64,000 nt of DNA, from assembly GCA_016187485.1 (NCBI GenBank), contig JACPJO010000005.1, forward strand, positions 226,385-290,384. Direction: 5' to 3'. Below are positions 3,679 through 11,576 of this stretch, piece after piece. Source of the stretch: Candidatus Uhrbacteria bacterium. Lineage in GTDB: Bacteria; Patescibacteriota; Patescibacteriia; UBA9934; UBA10169. The stretch's first letter is position 1; each line of letters starts with the position of its first letter. The translations under genes were made by a program, and so were the position numbers. Below the pieces are notes generated by a model, which was given only the letters and a program-made list of their open reading frames with translations, made no database searches and had not been told where the DNA came from.

Positions 3679-4881
3679 ATGAATACTCCTTCTCCATTTA
3701 TAGGAAAAACGGTCGGCGTTTTTTTTGGAGGAAAAAGTCCGGAACATGACGTTTCTATTATCACTGGGCTTTTGGTTTTAGATGAATTGGCAAAACTTGG
3801 AATCTTAAGTGAGCCGATTTACATAGGAACAGATGGCGCGTGGTGTATGGGTCAGCTGTTACGAGAAAGAAGCTTTCTCCAAGGTATCCATTCTCACGAT
3901 TTATACCCTCTTCAAAGGTGGTCGTTGGATACCCGCCACCGCACACCACGGCTTATTTTGACACGAAGGCCATCTTTTCTCTCACGCCGAGAGCAAAAGA
4001 TCATTGACATTGCCTTCCCCGTGTTCCACGGGGCATACGGTGAGGATGGTTGCTTCCAGGGACTTTGCGAAACTCTAGGCGTGCCCTACGTGGGTTGCGG
4101 CGTTGAGGGAAGCGCCATCGCAATGAATAAGATTCTTACAAAACAGTTTTTTCAGCAGCACGGGGTACAAACCACGCCCTTCGTCGGTTTCTCCGAAGCG
4201 GACTGGAAGTCAGACGCAAACTCCATCAAACGAAGGATCAATGAGACACTGACTTTCCCGGTTTTTGTGAAGCCATCGCATGCGGGCTCGTCTATTGGCA
4301 TTTCACGAGTAAAAAAACTTGAGGCTATAGAGGAGGCAATAGAGGCATCCTTTGAATTTGATACTCATTGCGTTATTGAAAGCGGTATTTCTCCGGTTCG
4401 CGACTTGACATGTTGTGTAAGAGAGTGTGCGAGTAGCTCTCCCAAAGCGTCGCTCGTTCAAGACTCCAGTTTTGGAAAAAGTGAGTTTTTTACGTACAAA
4501 GAGAAATACTTGCAAAGCGACGGCACTCATCTGGACGGAGCAGGAGAAAGTTTCACTATTCCCGCAGAGATACCTGTGGCAACCTCTAAAAATATCCAGG
4601 AGACTTCCGTTGCGATATTTAAAGAGCTCGGCCTCTCGGGAATTTCGCGAGTTGACTTCTTGTATAACCCAGAGACGTCCCAGCTCTATGCAAACGAGAT
4701 CAACCCGATGCCAGGAACACTCTACGAGCATCTGTGGAAGAAGAGTGGTGTCGAACCGAAAGAACTTATTTTAGATTTACTCGATGTTGCGATTCGTAAA
4801 CACACGGAAACCATTAAGAAGAACAAATACTTCCATTCACCGCTCTTATCAGATATGCAAGGACAAAAACTTTCTAAGTAG
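3679..4881 (+). CDS. ddl: D-alanine--D-alanine ligase
   Basis: N-terminal VGVFFGGKSPEHDVSIITG and ATP-grasp motifs (FVKPSHAGSSIGISRV, EINPMPG); Ddl-like over the full length, with one variable insertion. Confidence 0.85.
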   Translation: MNTPSPFIGKTVGVFFGGKSPEHDVSIITGLLVLDELAKLGILSEPIYIGTDGAWCMGQLLRERSFLQGIHSHDLYPLQRWSLDTRHRTPRLILTRRPSFLSRREQKIIDIAFPVFHGAYGEDGCFQGLCETLGVPYVGCGVEGSAIAMNKILTKQFFQQHGVQTTPFVGFSEADWKSDANSIKRRINETLTFPVFVKPSHAGSSIGISRVKKLEAIEEAIEASFEFDTHCVIESGISPVRDLTCCVRECASSSPKASLVQDSSFGKSEFFTYKEKYLQSDGTHLDGAGESFTIPAEIPVATSKNIQETSVAIFKELGLSGISRVDFLYNPETSQLYANEINPMPGTLYEHLWKKSGVEPKELILDLLDVAIRKHTETIKKNKYFHSPLLSDMQGQKLSK

Positions 4882-4898
4882 CCAAGTGAGCTTCCTAA

Positions 4899-4920
4899 CA
4901 AACATTCAATTGAATGTTTG
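4899..4920. repeat. perfect 22-bp palindrome caaacattcaattgaatgtttg, followed by a strong Shine-Dalgarno sequence and an ATG-GAG-TAA mini-ORF
   Basis: Read directly from the sequence; sits between the convergent ddl and Nudix genes. Confidence 0.5.
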
Positions 4921-4946
4921 GGGAGAGGTTAAAATGGAGTAAAACA

Positions 4947-5003
4947 AAGTTAACTATTCGCTTATTCGCACGAATTAGAGAAGGATGGACGTTTTTTCGA
5001 GAG
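4947..5003 (-). repeat. junction/leader repeat copy 1 (orphan, no downstream gene); overlaps the last codons and stop of the Nudix gene
   Basis: gttaactattcgcttattcgcacgaattagag...ttttttcgagag aligns with the copies at 7575-7633 and 9352-9414. Confidence 0.7.
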
Positions 5004-5508
5004 CCGCTAGCGCCAGAAGCCCTGTTGTCGTATCAGTAAGATCCCCCGTAGCAAGGTGATTGCGAAATTCGTCGACCGGCATGAGAATCACATCGATCTT
5101 TTCGTCTTCATCTGTATGAGGTTCTGTTACTTTCCGGCAATGGGTCGCAAGAAAATGATATCGTCGACAAGTTGAGTATGCACAATCCCATGTTGAACCC
5201 ACGAGGACGAGATCTCCTTCGTAACCTGTCTCTTCTAAAAGCTCACGACGCATGGCTTGGAGAGGCTCTTCCCCCACATTCATACCACCGCCAGGAAGTT
5301 CGCGTAAAATACTCCCGGGTCCTGGACGAAATTGCGCGGCGAGAACAGCGTGTCCATCTTCCGTAATAGGAAGACTACAGACCGTATTGCCCTCCAGTTT
5401 TACATCAATGTCTATCTCACGATCATCATCACACCGATACGTCCGCCGTTCGATTTTCCGATACCCATCATAAACAAGTTTCTTCGATACGAGTTCCCAT
5501 GGTTTCAT
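4975..5508 (-). CDS. Nudix hydrolase
   Basis: Nudix box GGGMNVGEEPLQAMRRELLEETGYEG. Start placed at the internal Met (MKPWELV) because the track's longer ORF (to 5631) runs through tRNA-Ala. Confidence 0.7.
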   Translation of the reverse strand: MKPWELVSKKLVYDGYRKIERRTYRCDDDREIDIDVKLEGNTVCSLPITEDGHAVLAAQFRPGPGSILRELPGGGMNVGEEPLQAMRRELLEETGYEGDLVLVGSTWDCAYSTCRRYHFLATHCRKVTEPHTDEDEKIDVILMPVDEFRNHLATGDLTDTTTGLLALAALEKTSILL

Positions 5509-5601
5509 AGCCGCTCTAGGATACACCCATTCGTGCACAAACCAAACCCCGCCCTTCGCGAAGGGCGGGGTTGGCGGTCTCGGGCGAAATCTTTCGATCT
5601 C

Positions 5602-5678
5602 TGGTGGACCTGACCGGGGTCGAACCGGCAACTCTAGGTGGCAACCATAGCGAGGTTACCGATTACCTCTACAGGCCC
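5602..5678 (-). tRNA. tRNA-Ala (anticodon UGC; G3:U70 and A73 identity elements; non-canonical anticodon-loop context)
   Basis: Minus-strand reading GGGCCTGTAGAGGTAATCGGTAACCTCGCTATGGTTGCCACCTAGAGTTGCCGGTTCGACCCCGGTCAGGTCCACCA: 7-bp acceptor stem with G3:U70, T-loop TTCGACC, encoded CCA. Confidence 0.75.
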
Positions 5679-5788
5679 GTACCCGAGGTAAAAATAAATA
5701 CAACTCTACTCATGAAGAGGGAGAGTTGTATCTTGCCACCTAGTTGAGCCCTTTGGGCTTCACCCAAAGACCTCGCTACGGTATCCCT

Positions 5789-5817
5789 ATTTCACCATAC
5801 TTTTTCTCTTCTGTCAA
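5789..5817 (-). promoter_or_regulatory. putative sigma70 promoter for tRNA-Ala (TTGACA-N17-TGAAAT, with TGg upstream of the -10)
   Basis: Minus-strand ttgacagaagagaaaaagtatggtgaaat about 100 nt upstream of the mature tRNA 5' end; same architecture as the promoter at 30310-30338. Confidence 0.4.
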
Positions 5818-5834
5818 CCGATTCTGGGGAAAAG

Positions 5835-7574
5835 TCATCCGTTTTTCTCGAGATACGCCAGATAACAATCACGACACAGAATACGTCGGTTTGGGTACCT
5901 ACGGCAAACAGTTACAAGAAGCGGCTTGCTACATTTTGTACACACGCGATTCTCAAACTGCGCGATTTGCGCTGACCACGACATCTGCTGCATACGTGGA
6001 ATAAAGTGCTCGCCGGGTGGAGCAATCCTCCATTTTCGGTAGTGCTCAACTTCCGGCTTCAAGAAGGAGAACGCACGCTTTGCCTGCTCGTCATAGATCG
6101 GAACGCCAATCCATGCGTCCGTGAGATCATCAATATTGTCGGGAATGTCCGCTAATTGGCGCGTCTTAGACATATCGTATCGATCGACACCCGTTGCACC
6201 CGCGTCTGTCGGAAGAAATTGGTTACCTCCAAGGATGCGTAGATCTTCTTCTGTGGAGCCTGCATACAACACCGAGCCAGACTCGGGAATGTACGAGGAG
6301 GAAAATGTCGTTGGGAAAATAGATCCGTATGTACCCTCGTCCATCATCGCGCACTCCATTGCGTCCACCGTCTTCCAGTACTCCTCTTCCGTGTACGGTT
6401 TGTTCAGAATGTGAAACTCCTTGTGCGCCAGACCGACGCATCCAAAACAGTTTCGACAATCGCGGCAGACCATGCAGTATTCGCTGTCCTCGCAACGCAC
6501 GGAACGATAACAAAACTTGAGACGATTCGAATCTGGACACGTTTCCACGCTGTAACTCTCATTCGTATTCACAGCTCCCCACGCATACGCGTTGCCTTGC
6601 GAAGCGCCGTATAACCATGCAGAGCGAAAATTATCCACGGCCGTGTCTTCCGAATCAAAGCAGAAATGACATCGTGTCGCGTTGTGGAGATAGTCTCCCG
6701 TTGCATCTGTCCCGCCGACGTTAAAGTTTTCGGGCCAAAAGGCGTGTGTAAGCAGCAGTTCGTCGAATCGCTTTGACCATTCATCAACAATCGAGCGCTT
6801 TCCAAGATCGATCGCCGCTATACGAGCTCGATACTCTCCTTCGGAAAGCTGTTCATTCATGAATAAAAACTTTCGATTCCGTTTGTTCGTGGCGCCAAAA
6901 CAGTGTTCGCAATTTCGGCAGTCAAAGAGAAAGGCTGACTCGAGACAGTCCTGTGATTCGCGCGCGTACCGACAACGATACATGCGATGAGAATGTGAAA
7001 TGTGGTGTGATTCTTTCACGCCAGAGGAAAGGTACACGACCGAGGAATCTTCCGTGTCCATGGCACCGACACCGAAAAACGTGCGTTTGCTCTGACATGC
7101 AAAAACAAAATAACTGTTCTGATCTCCAAAGGAGAGGAGTGCCAGTGAGTTTTCTGGCGGTACGATGTTTGCGGTTGCAAAAAACGGTACGCGGAGTTCG
7201 AGCGCACGCAGTTGTTCGAAAAATGGTTTCGAGAGGTCAAGCGTTTCATGGGTATTCGAAAAATCCTGCTCATACCATTCGGCATCGGGCAGCACGCGGA
7301 TGCCGGAGGCTGGGTGATGAAAGGAGAGGATAGGTTCCCCCGTTCGCGCATGTTTGTTCCACCAAAATTGAAAACCGATATCAAAATACCCTGCCCATTT
7401 CCATCGCGTATTCGGCGACAACTCCGACGGCGGGACATTAAACTTCTTGTACCACCCGATTTCCTCCTCGGTCATCATCCATTTCTCGCCCGTCAAAGCA
7501 CACACCCGCTCACCGAGTTTTGCGGCGTCGAGGACGGCTTTTACCTTCAAATCGTAGTTGGGAGTTTTACTCAT
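5835..7574 (-). CDS. Cys-rich protein of unknown function, paralog B (579 aa)
   Basis: Long ORF with repeated C-x2-C-x2-C-FG modules (DCRNCEHCFGATNKRN..., CMVCRDCRNCFGCVGL) and a C-terminal CxxC...CxxC zinc-ribbon-like end. About 50% aa identity to the upstream paralog, with nearly identical N- and C-termini. No recognisable enzyme motif. Confidence 0.6.
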   Translation of the reverse strand: MSKTPNYDLKVKAVLDAAKLGERVCALTGEKWMMTEEEIGWYKKFNVPPSELSPNTRWKWAGYFDIGFQFWWNKHARTGEPILSFHHPASGIRVLPDAEWYEQDFSNTHETLDLSKPFFEQLRALELRVPFFATANIVPPENSLALLSFGDQNSYFVFACQSKRTFFGVGAMDTEDSSVVYLSSGVKESHHISHSHRMYRCRYARESQDCLESAFLFDCRNCEHCFGATNKRNRKFLFMNEQLSEGEYRARIAAIDLGKRSIVDEWSKRFDELLLTHAFWPENFNVGGTDATGDYLHNATRCHFCFDSEDTAVDNFRSAWLYGASQGNAYAWGAVNTNESYSVETCPDSNRLKFCYRSVRCEDSEYCMVCRDCRNCFGCVGLAHKEFHILNKPYTEEEYWKTVDAMECAMMDEGTYGSIFPTTFSSSYIPESGSVLYAGSTEEDLRILGGNQFLPTDAGATGVDRYDMSKTRQLADIPDNIDDLTDAWIGVPIYDEQAKRAFSFLKPEVEHYRKWRIAPPGEHFIPRMQQMSWSAQIAQFENRVCTKCSKPLLVTVCRRYPNRRILCRDCYLAYLEKNG

Positions 7575-7633
7575 AATGTAACTATTCTCTTATTCTCACG
7601 AATTAGCCGAGTTAGCTGTTCTTTTCGAGATAC
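7575..7633 (-). repeat. junction/leader repeat copy 2: covers the stop region of paralog A and the 5' leader of paralog B
   Basis: gtaactattctcttattctcacgaattag...ttcttttcgagatac; contains the imperfect palindrome ctaattcgtgagaatag, which ends 4 nt before the start codon. Confidence 0.7.
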
Positions 7634-9351
7634 TCCAGATAGCACGGCCTGCAATAGATCGTTCTCTTCCGGTACGTCTGGTTAATTGTTACAAGCAGGG
7701 CCTTCGCGCACTTGCCACACGTCGTTTCTTTCCATACCTCGGAGTTTGCTTCCCTCCAGAAAGAGTAGACGCGGTCAATGAAATGACTCGTGGGAGGCGC
7801 AAGACGGTGCTTGCGGTAGAAATCAAGCTCGGGTTTGAGGTAGGAAAAACGTCGTTTGATGTTCGCGTCGTAGATCGGAACACCAAGCCAGTCCTCATCC
7901 TTCATGTCGTCAATGCAATCCGGAACGTCGTTTGTGCTACGTAACTTGCTCTCGTCAATCTCTCCAACAGCACCACCTGACTCCGGCTCAAAATCCAAAG
8001 GATGAAAGTCCTCGTTCCTTGCTGCCGTTTCCGGATACTGCACAACACCACCGTCCGGCCAGTAACCGACGAAAAAGCTCGCGGGAAAAAACATCCCATA
8101 CTCCCCTCGCTCAAGCATCGCCACTTTCACTTCGTCAAGTTTGGCGTAGTACTCCTCTTCCGTGTACTGCTTGTTGAAAAGGCAAAATCGTTTTCGCTGA
8201 AGTCCGAAGCATCCAAAACAATCTTCACAGTTGTAACAGTAGTAACAATACTCGACGCTCTGGCAATCCTGAATAGAGTACGAAAACGCACACTTCGCGC
8301 AGCGTGGGGCGATATTGCAAAGATAGATCTCACTCGCACTCATCGGTGCGCCAGAGAACGCACAGGCAGAACACTCCCCGTACGGATAGGAGACGTGATA
8401 GAGGTCTCGATACGGACCGTTCATGCCAGCAAAGACGAACTTGCAGTCCACGGCGTTAACCATGTACTCACCGATGACATCGGTACATTTTTCATTAAAG
8501 TTCTCTGGCCATACTGTATTCCTTTCCATGAGATCAAGGAATCGCGCCTTGTATTTCTCGAGTTCCGACCGTCGAGAGAGATCAACTTCCGCAAGGCGTT
8601 TTTCGTACTCGCTTTTTGAGAGTTGCTCATTGAACCAGAGGTACTGTTTATTGCGCTTGTTCGTTGCTCCAAAACATTTTTGGCAGTTGCGGCAGTCAAA
8701 AAGAAAGAGTGAATCGATGCAATCAAAACAGATGTGCGCAAACTTACAGTTGTGCATGCGGTGAGACTGCAAGATACGAAACGAGGAACTTATATTACTC
8801 CCGGCCGATGACTCGGCTGAATCTTCGAGCATGTAGGTATCGGTACTGTAAAAACTGTTCTTCGACTTGCACGCGCAGACGAAGTAACTGTTCACGTCAC
8901 CGATGGAGGAGATCGTAATGGAGTTGTGCGGCTGTTCGATGTTGCGCGAGGCAGGATAAGGGATTTTCAGCTGAAGCTCGCGCATCTGTTCAAAGAAGGA
9001 ACGCTCGAGATGGATAACGTCCTGAACAATGTGTGAAAAGTCTTCCCCAAACCATTCCTCGTCAGGAAGCGTCTGCAAACCGGTGGACGGATGGACCGTC
9101 GAGACAAACCGCTTCCCTGTCTTTGGGTGCGTGCGATACCAAAATTGATACATCTCAAAATACCCTACGACTTCTTTCATCCTCGTTTCCGGCGACCACG
9201 GATGCGGTGGCACATTGAACTTCTTGTACCACCCAATTTCCTCCTCCGTCATCTCCCATTTCTCCCCCGTCAACGCACAAACTCGCTCGCCTGGTTGTAC
9301 AGTATCGAGAATCGCTTTTACTTTGGCATCGTAGTTGGGAGTTTTGCTCAC
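7612..9351 (-). CDS. Cys-rich protein of unknown function, paralog A (579 aa, GTG start)
   Basis: Same architecture as paralog B (DCRNCQKCFGATNKRN..., CYYCYNCEDCFGCFGL, C-terminal CGKCAK...CRPCY). The first ~40 codons and the 5' leader are about 85% identical at DNA level to paralog B. Confidence 0.6.
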   Translation of the reverse strand: MSKTPNYDAKVKAILDTVQPGERVCALTGEKWEMTEEEIGWYKKFNVPPHPWSPETRMKEVVGYFEMYQFWYRTHPKTGKRFVSTVHPSTGLQTLPDEEWFGEDFSHIVQDVIHLERSFFEQMRELQLKIPYPASRNIEQPHNSITISSIGDVNSYFVCACKSKNSFYSTDTYMLEDSAESSAGSNISSSFRILQSHRMHNCKFAHICFDCIDSLFLFDCRNCQKCFGATNKRNKQYLWFNEQLSKSEYEKRLAEVDLSRRSELEKYKARFLDLMERNTVWPENFNEKCTDVIGEYMVNAVDCKFVFAGMNGPYRDLYHVSYPYGECSACAFSGAPMSASEIYLCNIAPRCAKCAFSYSIQDCQSVEYCYYCYNCEDCFGCFGLQRKRFCLFNKQYTEEEYYAKLDEVKVAMLERGEYGMFFPASFFVGYWPDGGVVQYPETAARNEDFHPLDFEPESGGAVGEIDESKLRSTNDVPDCIDDMKDEDWLGVPIYDANIKRRFSYLKPELDFYRKHRLAPPTSHFIDRVYSFWREANSEVWKETTCGKCAKALLVTINQTYRKRTIYCRPCYLEYLEKNS

Positions 9352-9414
9352 AAAGTAACTATTCGCCTATTCGCGCGAATTAGAGAAGACGGTTAGCCGT
9401 TCTGTTCGAGATAC
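9352..9414 (-). repeat. junction/leader repeat copy 3 (contains the perfect palindrome attcgcgcgaat)
   Basis: gtaactattcgcctattcgcgcgaattagag...ttctgttcgagatac immediately upstream of the paralog A start. Confidence 0.7.
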
Positions 9415-9461
9415 GCGAGATAGAAAGTATGAAACAGAATACGCCTATCTTGGCTTACGCA
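9393..9461 (-). pseudogene. relic C-terminal fragment of a third Cys-rich paralog
   Basis: Minus-strand frame gives (TGA stop) CVSQDRRILFHTFYLAYLEQNG*; compare the paralog B end CRRYPNRRILCRDCYLAYLEKNG*. No upstream body is present. Confidence 0.55.
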
Positions 9462-9483: not shown

Positions 9484-10917
9484 TCATTTTAGTTCCCTCG
9501 CCGCTTTGGCAAATGCCTCGCCGAGTTGTTTAGCAGCTGACGTATCGCTGTAGCCCAACGCCGGAGAGAAAATGACAGCATCGGCACTTGTGGCCGCCTG
9601 ACTCGCCGTCACAACGGCATCTGGCATATTTTCTGCACGCAGTATTTTGACCTCCTCAGTTTTTCCCATCACATGCTCAAACGCATCGCTCCCCGCTCCC
9701 GGCAACAAGACAACACTCTTACACACCAGCTTGCACACCTTTGCGAGCTCGTCGAGGTTCCCTTCCTTTACGTCTCCACCGGAAATCAAATGAATCGAAC
9801 GCCCGCGTTCGCCAAATCGGCGCAGAACATTTGTCGTCGCTTCGGCCGAGGACCCAAGCGCATCGTTCACATAGATCACCCCCGACACATCAGTGACAAT
9901 CTCTTGGCGATCATCTTCAGAAGAAAACGCTTTCACAACTTCCGCGCAAGATGCATTCTCCACGCTGTAAAGTTTTGCAACCGCAATCGCCGCAAGCACA
10001 TTACGCACATTATCGTCGCCTTCGAGATGAATGTTAGAGACAGGCATGATGATGTCATTCAAAGAGGTGACGTTCCCATCCTTCACACACACCCCCTCCT
10101 TCCCTTCCAGCAGTAAGAGCGAAAACCAAACGACGCGTCCTGGTGCTTTCTCTGCTAATCCTCTTACTTGATCTTGATCAGCATTCAACACGGCAATGCC
10201 ATCCTTTCCCCCTTTTGCAAACACCCCAACCTTTGATGCCGCATACGCCTCCATCGACGCATAGCGATGTAAGTGATCGGCATACATGTTGGTCAACACC
10301 CCGACCTCTGGCCCACGATCAAGATGATCGAGACTCTCAAGCAACCAGGACGACAACTCAAGCACAATCGGCGCGGGTTCTTTCCATGCAAGAATCTCGT
10401 CCAAATATTCAAGTGGCGACACGCGCATGTTTCCCGCCACAATCGTTTGAGGATTCTTCTTTTTTAGAAGTTCGCCGATCAATGCCGTCGTGGTCGTCTT
10501 GCCACGCGCCCCGGTAACACCGATCACCGGATACGGACAAAACTGAAAAAATAAACTCACATCTGATTCCACCGGCACCCTATGCGCATACGCCATCTTC
10601 ACCCACGGCGAATCATGCGGCACATCGGGATTCGTGATGACAAGCGCCACATCCGTGAAATCCTCTTCACGATGTTCGCCCAGCACAAAAATCGGGTGGT
10701 ACAACTCCCGGTCGGGAAGTGTTTGGCGATATTCTTCAAACCACCGTGTAACTTCATCCACCGATTCACGAAGCTCCTCGTTCGTTCGATGATCGGTAAT
10801 CACCACTTGCGCGCCATGACGGATGAGCCACTTTGTTGCGCCTACGCCGCTTCCGCGTTTTAAGCGACCAAGCCCCATGACCGTCACAACAGCATCTTGA
10901 ATATTGGAGACCTCCAT
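9484..10917 (-). CDS. murD: UDP-N-acetylmuramoylalanine--D-glutamate ligase (MurD)
   Basis: Start placed at MEVSNIQDAVVTVMGLGRLKRGSGVGATKWL (MurD N-terminal Rossmann-like domain); Mur ligase P-loop GVTGARGKTTTTALIG. The track's N-terminal extension overlaps the upstream GT2 gene. Confidence 0.75.
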   Translation of the reverse strand: MEVSNIQDAVVTVMGLGRLKRGSGVGATKWLIRHGAQVVITDHRTNEELRESVDEVTRWFEEYRQTLPDRELYHPIFVLGEHREEDFTDVALVITNPDVPHDSPWVKMAYAHRVPVESDVSLFFQFCPYPVIGVTGARGKTTTTALIGELLKKKNPQTIVAGNMRVSPLEYLDEILAWKEPAPIVLELSSWLLESLDHLDRGPEVGVLTNMYADHLHRYASMEAYAASKVGVFAKGGKDGIAVLNADQDQVRGLAEKAPGRVVWFSLLLLEGKEGVCVKDGNVTSLNDIIMPVSNIHLEGDDNVRNVLAAIAVAKLYSVENASCAEVVKAFSSEDDRQEIVTDVSGVIYVNDALGSSAEATTNVLRRFGERGRSIHLISGGDVKEGNLDELAKVCKLVCKSVVLLPGAGSDAFEHVMGKTEEVKILRAENMPDAVVTASQAATSADAVIFSPALGYSDTSAAKQLGEAFAKAARELK

Positions 10918-10931
10918 AAAACAGAAGCATT

Positions 10932-11576
10932 TTACCTCTTGTGCCAAGAAGATGCCACCAACGCTCCGGCCACTTGGCCCCACATGCGCACATACTGCCA
11001 TAGTCCGCGCCGCCACCCGACCTTCGCCACTTTTGTCCGGATACGCACACCCGTAAGGAGAATCGCTTGTATTCTCCCTCCTTTTTCCCGACATAATGCG
11101 TTGAGAGCAATCTCCACACGATACCCCGAGAGCTGTCCAGACGGGCACGAGAGGAAAAGGGTGCGCGACAGACATCGTTCCCCGCTCACAAGGGGGAGAA
11201 GACGCATAAGCGCAACCAGCAAGGCTCCGCGATCCCGGAGCCCCACACTCATCACGGCTTGCCCTCGCTCCACGGGCTCAAAAAGTTTTTGCACGTGTTC
11301 ATGGGTGATACCGTAGATATCCGCATCCAAAAACATGACAAATGCCGTGTGCGCTGCCTCGACCCCCACACACATGGCGTGTCCCTTTCCTCCGCGGGCC
11401 AAAAGCTCAATCACGCGGGCGCCAGCCATATGAGCCCTTTGCACTGTCCTGTCCGTTGAACCATCCGAGACAACTAAAACTTCCTCCACAAGCGGAGCAT
11501 TCTTTACTGCCGCCGCAACATCCCCAACGGTAGCTTCTTCATTGTAGGCAGGAATGACGATGGTGAGAGATTTCAT
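10932..11576 (-). CDS. family 2 glycosyltransferase
   Basis: MKSLTIVIPAYNEEATVGDV...VVSDGSTDRT...FLDADI: the GT-A fold DxD region. Confidence 0.7.
   Translation of the reverse strand: MKSLTIVIPAYNEEATVGDVAAAVKNAPLVEEVLVVSDGSTDRTVQRAHMAGARVIELLARGGKGHAMCVGVEAAHTAFVMFLDADIYGITHEHVQKLFEPVERGQAVMSVGLRDRGALLVALMRLLPLVSGERCLSRTLFLSCPSGQLSGYRVEIALNALCREKGGRIQAILLTGVRIRTKVAKVGWRRGLWQYVRMWGQVAGALVASSWHKR

Follow-up and report, generated by a model that had tools for sequence, protein, structure and literature searches.

In the 64-kb stretch of DNA that was analysed here (the window), which the protein names of its best matches assign to a Candidatus Uhrbacteria MAG, a repeat of 28-33 nt, to which we give the name J, occurs three times (Table 1). 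Two of the copies, B and C, lie in front of P1 and P2, respectively, paralogous genes for Cys-rich proteins, with 7-9 nt between the end of the repeat and the start codon. Copy A is an orphan. No Cys-rich gene comes after it, and what is found on its 3' side is about 25 nt, a hairpin around another palindrome, and then the convergent ddl gene, whose stop codon is at 4881. On its other side the reading frame of a Nudix hydrolase gene terminates within the repeat. A preliminary description of this locus had pointed out both the orphan copy and the stop codon inside it, and both were confirmed; it had gone on to interpret them as the scar of a deleted or translocated paralog. This leads to the question what copy A is and how it came to lie at the end of a Nudix gene.

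Table 1. Positions of the features around copy A and the P array in the window
Feature	Position	Strand	Remarks
ddl, D-Ala-D-Ala ligase	3679..4881	+	convergent with the Nudix gene
Hairpin around the perfect palindrome CAAACATTCAATTGAATGTTTG	4889..4929		between the convergent ddl and Nudix genes
J copy A, orphan, operator-like palindrome tccttctCTAATTCGTGCGAATAAGCGAATAG	about 4951..4986	-	core 4951-4978; PWM score 45.2 bits
Nudix stop codon TAA	4975..4977	-	coincides with the TAA that is invariant in the left half-site of J
Nudix hydrolase CDS	4975..5508	-	177 aa
Tract like the 3' end of a P gene, CTGGCG CTAGCG GCTCTCGAAAAAACG	4990..5016	-	encodes Nudix ...LALAALEKT
Terminator hairpin, perfect 14+14 palindrome	5545-5572	-	3' of tRNA-Ala(UGC)
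tRNA-Ala(UGC)	5602..5678	-	
P1, Cys-rich paralog	5835..7574	-	579 aa
J copy B	7579..7611	-	between P2 stop and P1 start; core 7579-7606; PWM score 41.5 bits
P2, Cys-rich paralog	7612..9351	-	579 aa
J copy C	9356..9388	-	upstream of P2; core 9356-9383; PWM score 47.3 bits
P pseudogene stub, RILFHTFYLAYLEQNG and stop	9393..9449	-	last 18 codons and stop
MurD-like Mur ligase ORF	9484..11175	-	upstream limit of the array; not a paralog

J is an imperfect palindrome of the 12-2-12 type, TATTCTCTAATTCG-CG-CGAATAGGCGAATAG, and its consensus over 143 sites is TATTCTCTAATTCG-CG-CGAAT(AGGC/TAGA/AAGC/AGGA)GAATAG. This is an operator-type geometry, with arms of about 12 nt and a spacer of 2 nt, and perfect 13-2-13 forms exist, such as ATTCTCTAATTCGCGCGAATTAGAGAAT, found 5' of a truncated P-like ORF in L069, a locus from a Liptonbacteria MAG. 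The 28-nt core, CTAATTCGTGCGAATAAGCGAATAGTTA, is present three times in the window, always on the minus strand, and the cores of copies B and C have two mismatches each to that of copy A, when no match at all was expected by chance. The centre of copy A reads CG-TG-CG, and the same central GTG variant is found upstream of an ArsR gene in locus L166. When the 64-kb window was scanned with the core and with the matrix, J sites were found only at this array. A fourth, degenerate copy considered 3' of P1 was rejected, with alignment p values of 0.4-0.96; the 3' end of P1 leads into structured terminator hairpins and not into J. Conservation of J is limited to about 34 nt (-9 to +25) and has palindromic symmetry. 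The folds of RNAs containing J were no more stable than those of shuffled sequences (z -0.3 to -1.5), from which it follows that J acts as a DNA-level site; with these z values and no Rfam matches, an RNA hairpin or terminator was ruled out. The sole significant hairpin among the folds around copy A is that of the separate palindrome on the ddl side. As to a promoter, a simple scan for a fixed-geometry sigma-70 promoter found nothing at J, and -10-like hexamers after J showed no positional enrichment over 131 sites, so a promoter role of J is putative. A leaderless mRNA with AATAGT as the -10 box is a speculation; P2 starts with GTG.

In the preliminary description J was called a junction repeat, which taken literally would make it a junction left by gene duplication. 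Its distribution does not agree with that, as exact matches to the core CTAATTCGCGCGAATNNNNGAATA are present at no fewer than 147 sites (that is, at least 147) in at least 120 unrelated metagenome contigs, often two to five in a contig. The genes on its 3' side encode P-like proteins, TrpRS, topoisomerase I, ClpP, ribosomal protein S16, Mur ligases, a Nudix protein, peptidase S51, ArsR and others, and in contigs that have no P gene J precedes ArsR, peptidase S51, TrpRS, topoisomerase, ClpP and S16. It ends 0-40 nt 5' of many start codons, and the sites cluster immediately before the starts. Loci from Uhrbacteria and Liptonbacteria MAGs also carry J directly before start codons, and a near-identical element lies just 5' of some of the P genes of other species, as CTAATTCGCGCGAATAGGCGAATAG in L055 and in variant form in L021 and L045; in L021 J precedes a non-P gene as well. 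Among about 200 P junctions in other genomes about 5 carry J, and the P junctions elsewhere are mostly 2-12 nt long and without it. A search of 2.9 million viral contigs found no copy of J, and a phage or mobile origin was rejected on that ground. J is thus a lineage-wide conserved regulatory palindrome in Patescibacteria, and copy A is an extra copy of a widespread site and not a new kind of element.

The left arm of J reads (C/A)TT CTC TAA, and ORFs that stop there therefore end in (L/I)-L and the stop. At least seven ArsR genes, an unrelated Nudix gene in L112 and a Ham1-like gene in L180 end at the TAA of a J. A stop codon inside J therefore recurs elsewhere and is not in itself a recombination scar, as had been proposed for the Nudix gene in the window. 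At L112:1282 the Nudix gene ends at the TAA of J, and at L168:934 another Nudix gene starts 25 nt after J; from these two cases it appears that Nudix genes recur beside J independently of P arrays. Nor do orphan sites need to be scars, because 47 of the 137 J sites with enough flanking sequence also lack an ORF of at least 50 aa that starts within 90 nt downstream.

The product most frequently encoded 3' of J is a protein of 86-93 aa with the motif ...LKALANRRRLAIL.... In the J-selected metagenome loci J lies within 110 nt upstream of all 19 ArsR-type orthologues among the matches listed, and for at least 7 of these 19 a second J provides the stop codon with its TAA. In these loci only about one gene in eight has an upstream J, and 19 out of 19 is therefore far beyond chance. 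The regulator passes the NCBIfam model NF033788 (ArsR/SmtB) with 64.1 bits against a cut-off of 55, and its Pfam scores are 26.7 for HTH_5 (cut-off 22) and 27.4 for HTH_20 (cut-off 27). The closest solved relatives of the 86-aa form are NolR and HlyU (E 3.5e-6 to 2e-5). This form has no Cys and one His, and neither of the metal-ligand arrangements, the alpha3N Cys pair or the alpha5 Asp/His cluster, was found in it; as it is Cys-less, has a single His and has non-metal proteins as its nearest structures, we class it as an ArsR-fold protein and not as a metal sensor. Its gene is absent from the 64-kb window. A second P array of the same genome (L191/L192) has the order HTH_5 (81 aa) - P - P - peptidase S51 - ArsR (86 aa) - P - P, in which J precedes five consecutive genes, the regulator's own gene included, and the ArsR ORF ends ...ISLL with its stop codon inside the next J. 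This second array, which lies outside the window, adjoins SecDF and two genes for TraG/TrwB-like coupling proteins. Imperfect inverted repeats of the 12-2-12 type are known binding sites of SmtB/ArsR proteins and lie upstream of their targets or inside them, genes for Cys-rich metallothioneins among them (PMC8790569). Most likely J serves this small Cys-less winged-helix regulator of the ArsR/SmtB family as its operator and at some sites also contributes to the promoter, and the architecture and co-occurrence described above suggest that the regulator would bind J and repress. As a family J lies upstream of the genes that would be regulated, but this does not hold for copy A, which has no downstream gene.

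The Nudix CDS is identical to an NCBI Uhrbacteria protein. Its last residues are ...ALEKTSILL, and the TAA that follows them belongs to the CTCTAATTCG half-site of J. When orthologues from elsewhere were compared, they were found to end ...GLDYLGLL; the tail in the window is four residues (EKTS) longer than that of all close orthologues. There was no J downstream of the orthologues at the four orthologous loci, and conserved gene order around Nudix orthologues was not found. Since the family natively ends ...GLDYLGLL and a stop, the terminal LL of this Nudix protein fits J and the Nudix family alike. It had also been claimed that the last Nudix codons resemble the 3' ends of the paralogs, and this resemblance proved to be weak but significant. 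When the tract upstream of copy A (5016-4990) is aligned to the 3' end of P1 with a single gap, 19 of 22 positions agree, and both the frame and the register relative to the repeat are kept (p 0.001 against shuffled sequences and 0.003 against random 45-mers of the window). The identity of 86% between the tract and the P1 end compares with 78% between the P1 and P2 ends. By a profile of 168 P-gene 3' ends from other genomes, the P-like 18-mer ranks in the top 0.074% of the 18-mers of the window. Homology to a P 3' end, as would be expected at a junction scar, is thus present with moderate support, as some of these nucleotides may have belonged to the Nudix gene all along. The portion CTnGCnnnTCTCG, which codes for L-x-x-L, could be native, because orthologues end ...L(D/E)YLGLL (e.g. 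gaa tat ctc ggg), and then only the A-rich GAAAAAACG would be P-specific.

On the downstream side the picture is different. The flank of copy A there showed no significant similarity to P starts (p 0.29-0.80) or to the region 3' of P1 (p 0.12-0.14), and tblastn of P in the window found only P1, P2 and the stub. A remnant of a P start, or of sequence downstream of P, after copy A was rejected; the sequence in that place belongs to the ddl hairpin. What is left of the proposed scar of a deleted paralog is a P-like 3' tract in register on the Nudix side, and the 5' remnant of a paralog on the other side is missing.

The palindrome on the ddl side belongs to a second family, which we call K. The hairpin that contains it is a significantly stable RNA fold on the ddl strand (z = -3.06); no U-tract follows it on the minus strand, and no Rfam match was found in the region. 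The 22-bp palindrome itself (4899-4920) is a one-unit version of K, AACATTCCAACATTCT-N4-AGAATGTTGGAATGTT. There are 11 copies of K in the J-selected metagenome loci (L091, L109, L114, L115, L135 and L160) and none in 883 kb of P-selected loci. They lie mostly just upstream of gene starts and some of them adjoin J, and K may be the operator of another regulator. That J and the 22-bp palindrome form one unit was rejected, as K is a separate family whose position relative to J is inconsistent.

P1 and P2 are 47% identical, and the P family had no sequence match in Pfam, NCBIfam or PDB. P genes form tandem arrays in many Uhrbacteria MAGs, the longest of at least nine genes, with several arrays per genome; distant relatives with about 28% identity were seen in Liptonbacteria, Jorgensenbacteria, Saccharibacteria and Minisyncoccia. 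The array in the window consists of two intact paralogs and an 18-codon stub of a P 3' end, which sits between the MurD-like gene and copy C. The stub is 77% identical to the P1 end over 52 nt of DNA and 67% identical over 18 aa by tblastn, and both of its CxxC cysteines are mutated to Phe. The presence of this stub beside copy C means that the array has lost at least one paralog before, at that end. The suggestion that the array was once longer or is mobile can thus be divided: a longer array in the past is plausible from the stub, and mobility is unsupported, with no mobility genes beside copy A and no viral copies of J. There was also no strain-level variation in paralog copy number, as three independent Logan assemblies of the same population were 100% identical across 4700-9381. 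In the collections searched the nearest relatives were 53% identical for the Nudix protein and 60% for P1, and no locus with the same gene order was found in the other genomes compared.

Some further observations were made along the array. Two independent Logan contigs (L001 and L002) end at the identical base inside copy C (window position 9381); this shared end is probably an assembly break due to J copies shared with a sister array, and a strain difference upstream of P2 could also account for it. The gene beyond the stub, which the preliminary description had counted as a paralog, encodes a MurD-like ligase instead. Its ORF seems to reach too far on the 5' side: no Pfam domain starts before residue 97, the first 90 codons or so overlap an adjacent glycosyltransferase-like ORF, and the real start is probably further in. 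At the P1 end, the stretch from the P1 stop to the tRNA (5685-5800, minus strand) has two hairpins (z -4.1), the second of which is followed by a U-tract, and a sigma-70-like TTGACA-N17-TGAAAT precedes them both. This structured stretch, for which no Rfam match was found, could be the terminator region of P1 or a small RNA. The CCA end of tRNA-Ala(UGC) is encoded and its anticodon loop, GUUGCCA (G32, C37), is unusual; Rfam missed this tRNA at default filters and detected it with 35.1 bits in the sensitive mode.

A probable explanation for copy A, which on balance we favour although with little confidence to spare, is that it represents an ArsR-type operator that is still intact but has no target gene, on the margin of a P array that has eroded, and that the Nudix frame reads through a P-derived tract into the stop codon built into this operator. 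J would serve the ArsR-fold regulator that is encoded in the second P array of the genome, and at the sites before P2 and P1 it would do so in the window. Copy A would lie at the eroded 3' edge of the window array, where the Nudix ORF appears to run through about seven codons derived from a P 3' end before it stops at the TAA in the left half-site of J. Most probably there was once a P-J junction, or a P-J-gene junction, whose flanking genes disappeared by deletion or else through ectopic recombination or gene conversion with neighbouring junctions; the same kind of loss would have taken place at the other end of the array, with the P 3' stub surviving by copy C. Today copy A would probably still bind the regulator and control no gene. 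This origin from an eroded P-J junction is plausible but unproven, and it speaks against a scar that at least two events are needed to arrive at the present arrangement. The core of copy A is as near to the consensus (45 bits) as those of the functional copies, which is unexpected for an old neutral relic and suggests that the copy arose recently, was homogenised by gene conversion or has a function today.

It is also conceivable, but we think it unlikely, that copy A never lay beside a paralog but was placed, or evolved, as an operator in its own right where the Nudix gene stops, as is seen with other genes of these compact genomes, and that the resemblance of the Nudix tail to P is coincidental. 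That ORFs of several families (ArsR, the Nudix gene of L112 and the Ham1-like gene of L180) end at the TAA of J elsewhere, and that J lies upstream of another Nudix gene in L168, would agree with this, as would the absence of a P 5' remnant downstream of copy A. The native coding sequence for L-x-Y-L-G-L-L and stop shares TATCTCG with P 3' ends, and the left arm of J, CTTCTCTAA, encodes LL and stop, so that some likeness could have been there from the start. Such a coincidence is harder to reconcile with a flank that ranks in the top 0.074% by the P 3'-end profile at a pre-specified register and agrees at 19 of 22 positions with the end of the adjacent P1 gene. The four extra residues of the Nudix protein, EKTS, relative to all close orthologues, the restriction of J in the 64-kb window to this one array, and the undoubted P stub at the other end of the array also argue against it.

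Somewhat less probable than an independent operator is that copy A is functional now, either by giving rise, when derepressed, to a short transcript toward the 3' end of ddl or by binding a regulator that, where the Nudix gene ends, serves as a roadblock or a decoy. The transcript could be an antisense or small RNA or could carry a 13-codon ORF that starts with TTG (4905-4946), and this TTG is 6 nt after GAATAG compared to 7 nt to the start codon in the P genes. The core of copy A is fully conserved, its central variant is that of the ArsR-upstream site in L166, and a similar order of an ORF ending in J, an orphan J and a K palindrome is found in L160. About one third of the J sites elsewhere likewise have no obvious downstream ORF. 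However, neither a conserved ORF nor a conserved RNA was found after copy A, where the ddl hairpin lies without a U-tract on the minus strand and the region has no Rfam match; J has no consistent promoter geometry, and the arrangement of J and K is inconsistent across loci. To a wider reading we would give the same low probability. It holds that J and the Cys-less ArsR-like protein make up an undescribed Patescibacteria-wide regulon with arrays of Cys-rich proteins of about 580 aa and housekeeping genes as targets, and that the gene-less sites are working decoys, roadblocks or switchable antisense promoters; the promoter at copy A would then face ddl.

That J is a functionless tandem-duplication junction, with copy A a pure scar, or else a small mobile palindromic element of the MITE or REP kind is very improbable. 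Copies B and C do sit precisely where a P 3' end (that of P2 and that of the stub) meets a P start, long tandem arrays of P genes are found in many Uhrbacteria genomes, and J is palindromic and abundant. But the same element of 24-34 nt precedes unrelated genes in contigs without a P gene, its sites cluster right before start codons, and it is present at only about 5 of about 200 P junctions elsewhere. Its conservation stops sharply at -9 and +25, a span shorter than that of a MITE, and outside the palindrome neither flanks nor terminal structures are conserved; it has no copies in the viral contigs.

With copy A read as an operator left at an eroded array edge, the scar-like feature is mainly the outcome of regulatory sites being packed against stop codons in a compact CPR genome, together with the erosion of the array. 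A by-product of this analysis, which may be the more useful lead, is a 34-nt palindrome that is tied to one ArsR-fold regulator across many Patescibacteria contigs. To our knowledge, almost nothing is known about transcriptional control in Patescibacteria. J and its regulator provide a concrete and testable candidate operator-regulator pair and a candidate regulon, which would include the uncharacterised family of Cys-rich arrays. In the literature searched, AATTCGCGCGAATT was not found in any paper, and no paper on an ArsR regulon in Patescibacteria was found.

When the locus is compared with known systems, the first likeness is to the eroded edges of paralog arrays, at which stubs and orphan promoters or operators are left. 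Here there is likewise a 3' stub at one end (9393-9449) and, at the other end, a P-like tract with a gene-less regulatory site. Unlike at typical eroded edges, the remnant at copy A is only about 22 nt long and has been absorbed in frame into a functional neighbour, and the core of the site is undecayed. The second likeness is to the operators of SmtB/ArsR proteins, such as the smtA operator/promoter with SmtB and nmtA with AzuR (PMC8790569). J is, like these, an imperfect palindrome with arms of about 12-14 nt and a 2-nt centre, it lies upstream of or overlaps its putative targets, and it precedes the gene of its own regulator, which suggests autoregulation. Its local targets would be Cys-rich proteins, which may be compared with the metallothioneins controlled by SmtB and AzuR (PMC8790569). 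J differs from the known SmtB/ArsR boxes in that its sequence is unrelated to theirs and its regulator has no Cys and none of the usual metal ligands. It differs also in being repeated before nearly every gene of an array, often with the stop codon of the previous gene inside it, and in having housekeeping genes among its targets in other contigs, and its binding is putative. The third likeness is to NolR of Sinorhizobium and HlyU of Vibrio. The similarity of the J regulator to these two is distant (about 30 bits), their operator sequences are different from J and the organisms are unrelated, but both are small dimeric winged-helix proteins of the ArsR/SmtB fold that, like the J regulator, lack metal-sensing residues, and both recognise palindromic or variable operators at several promoters.
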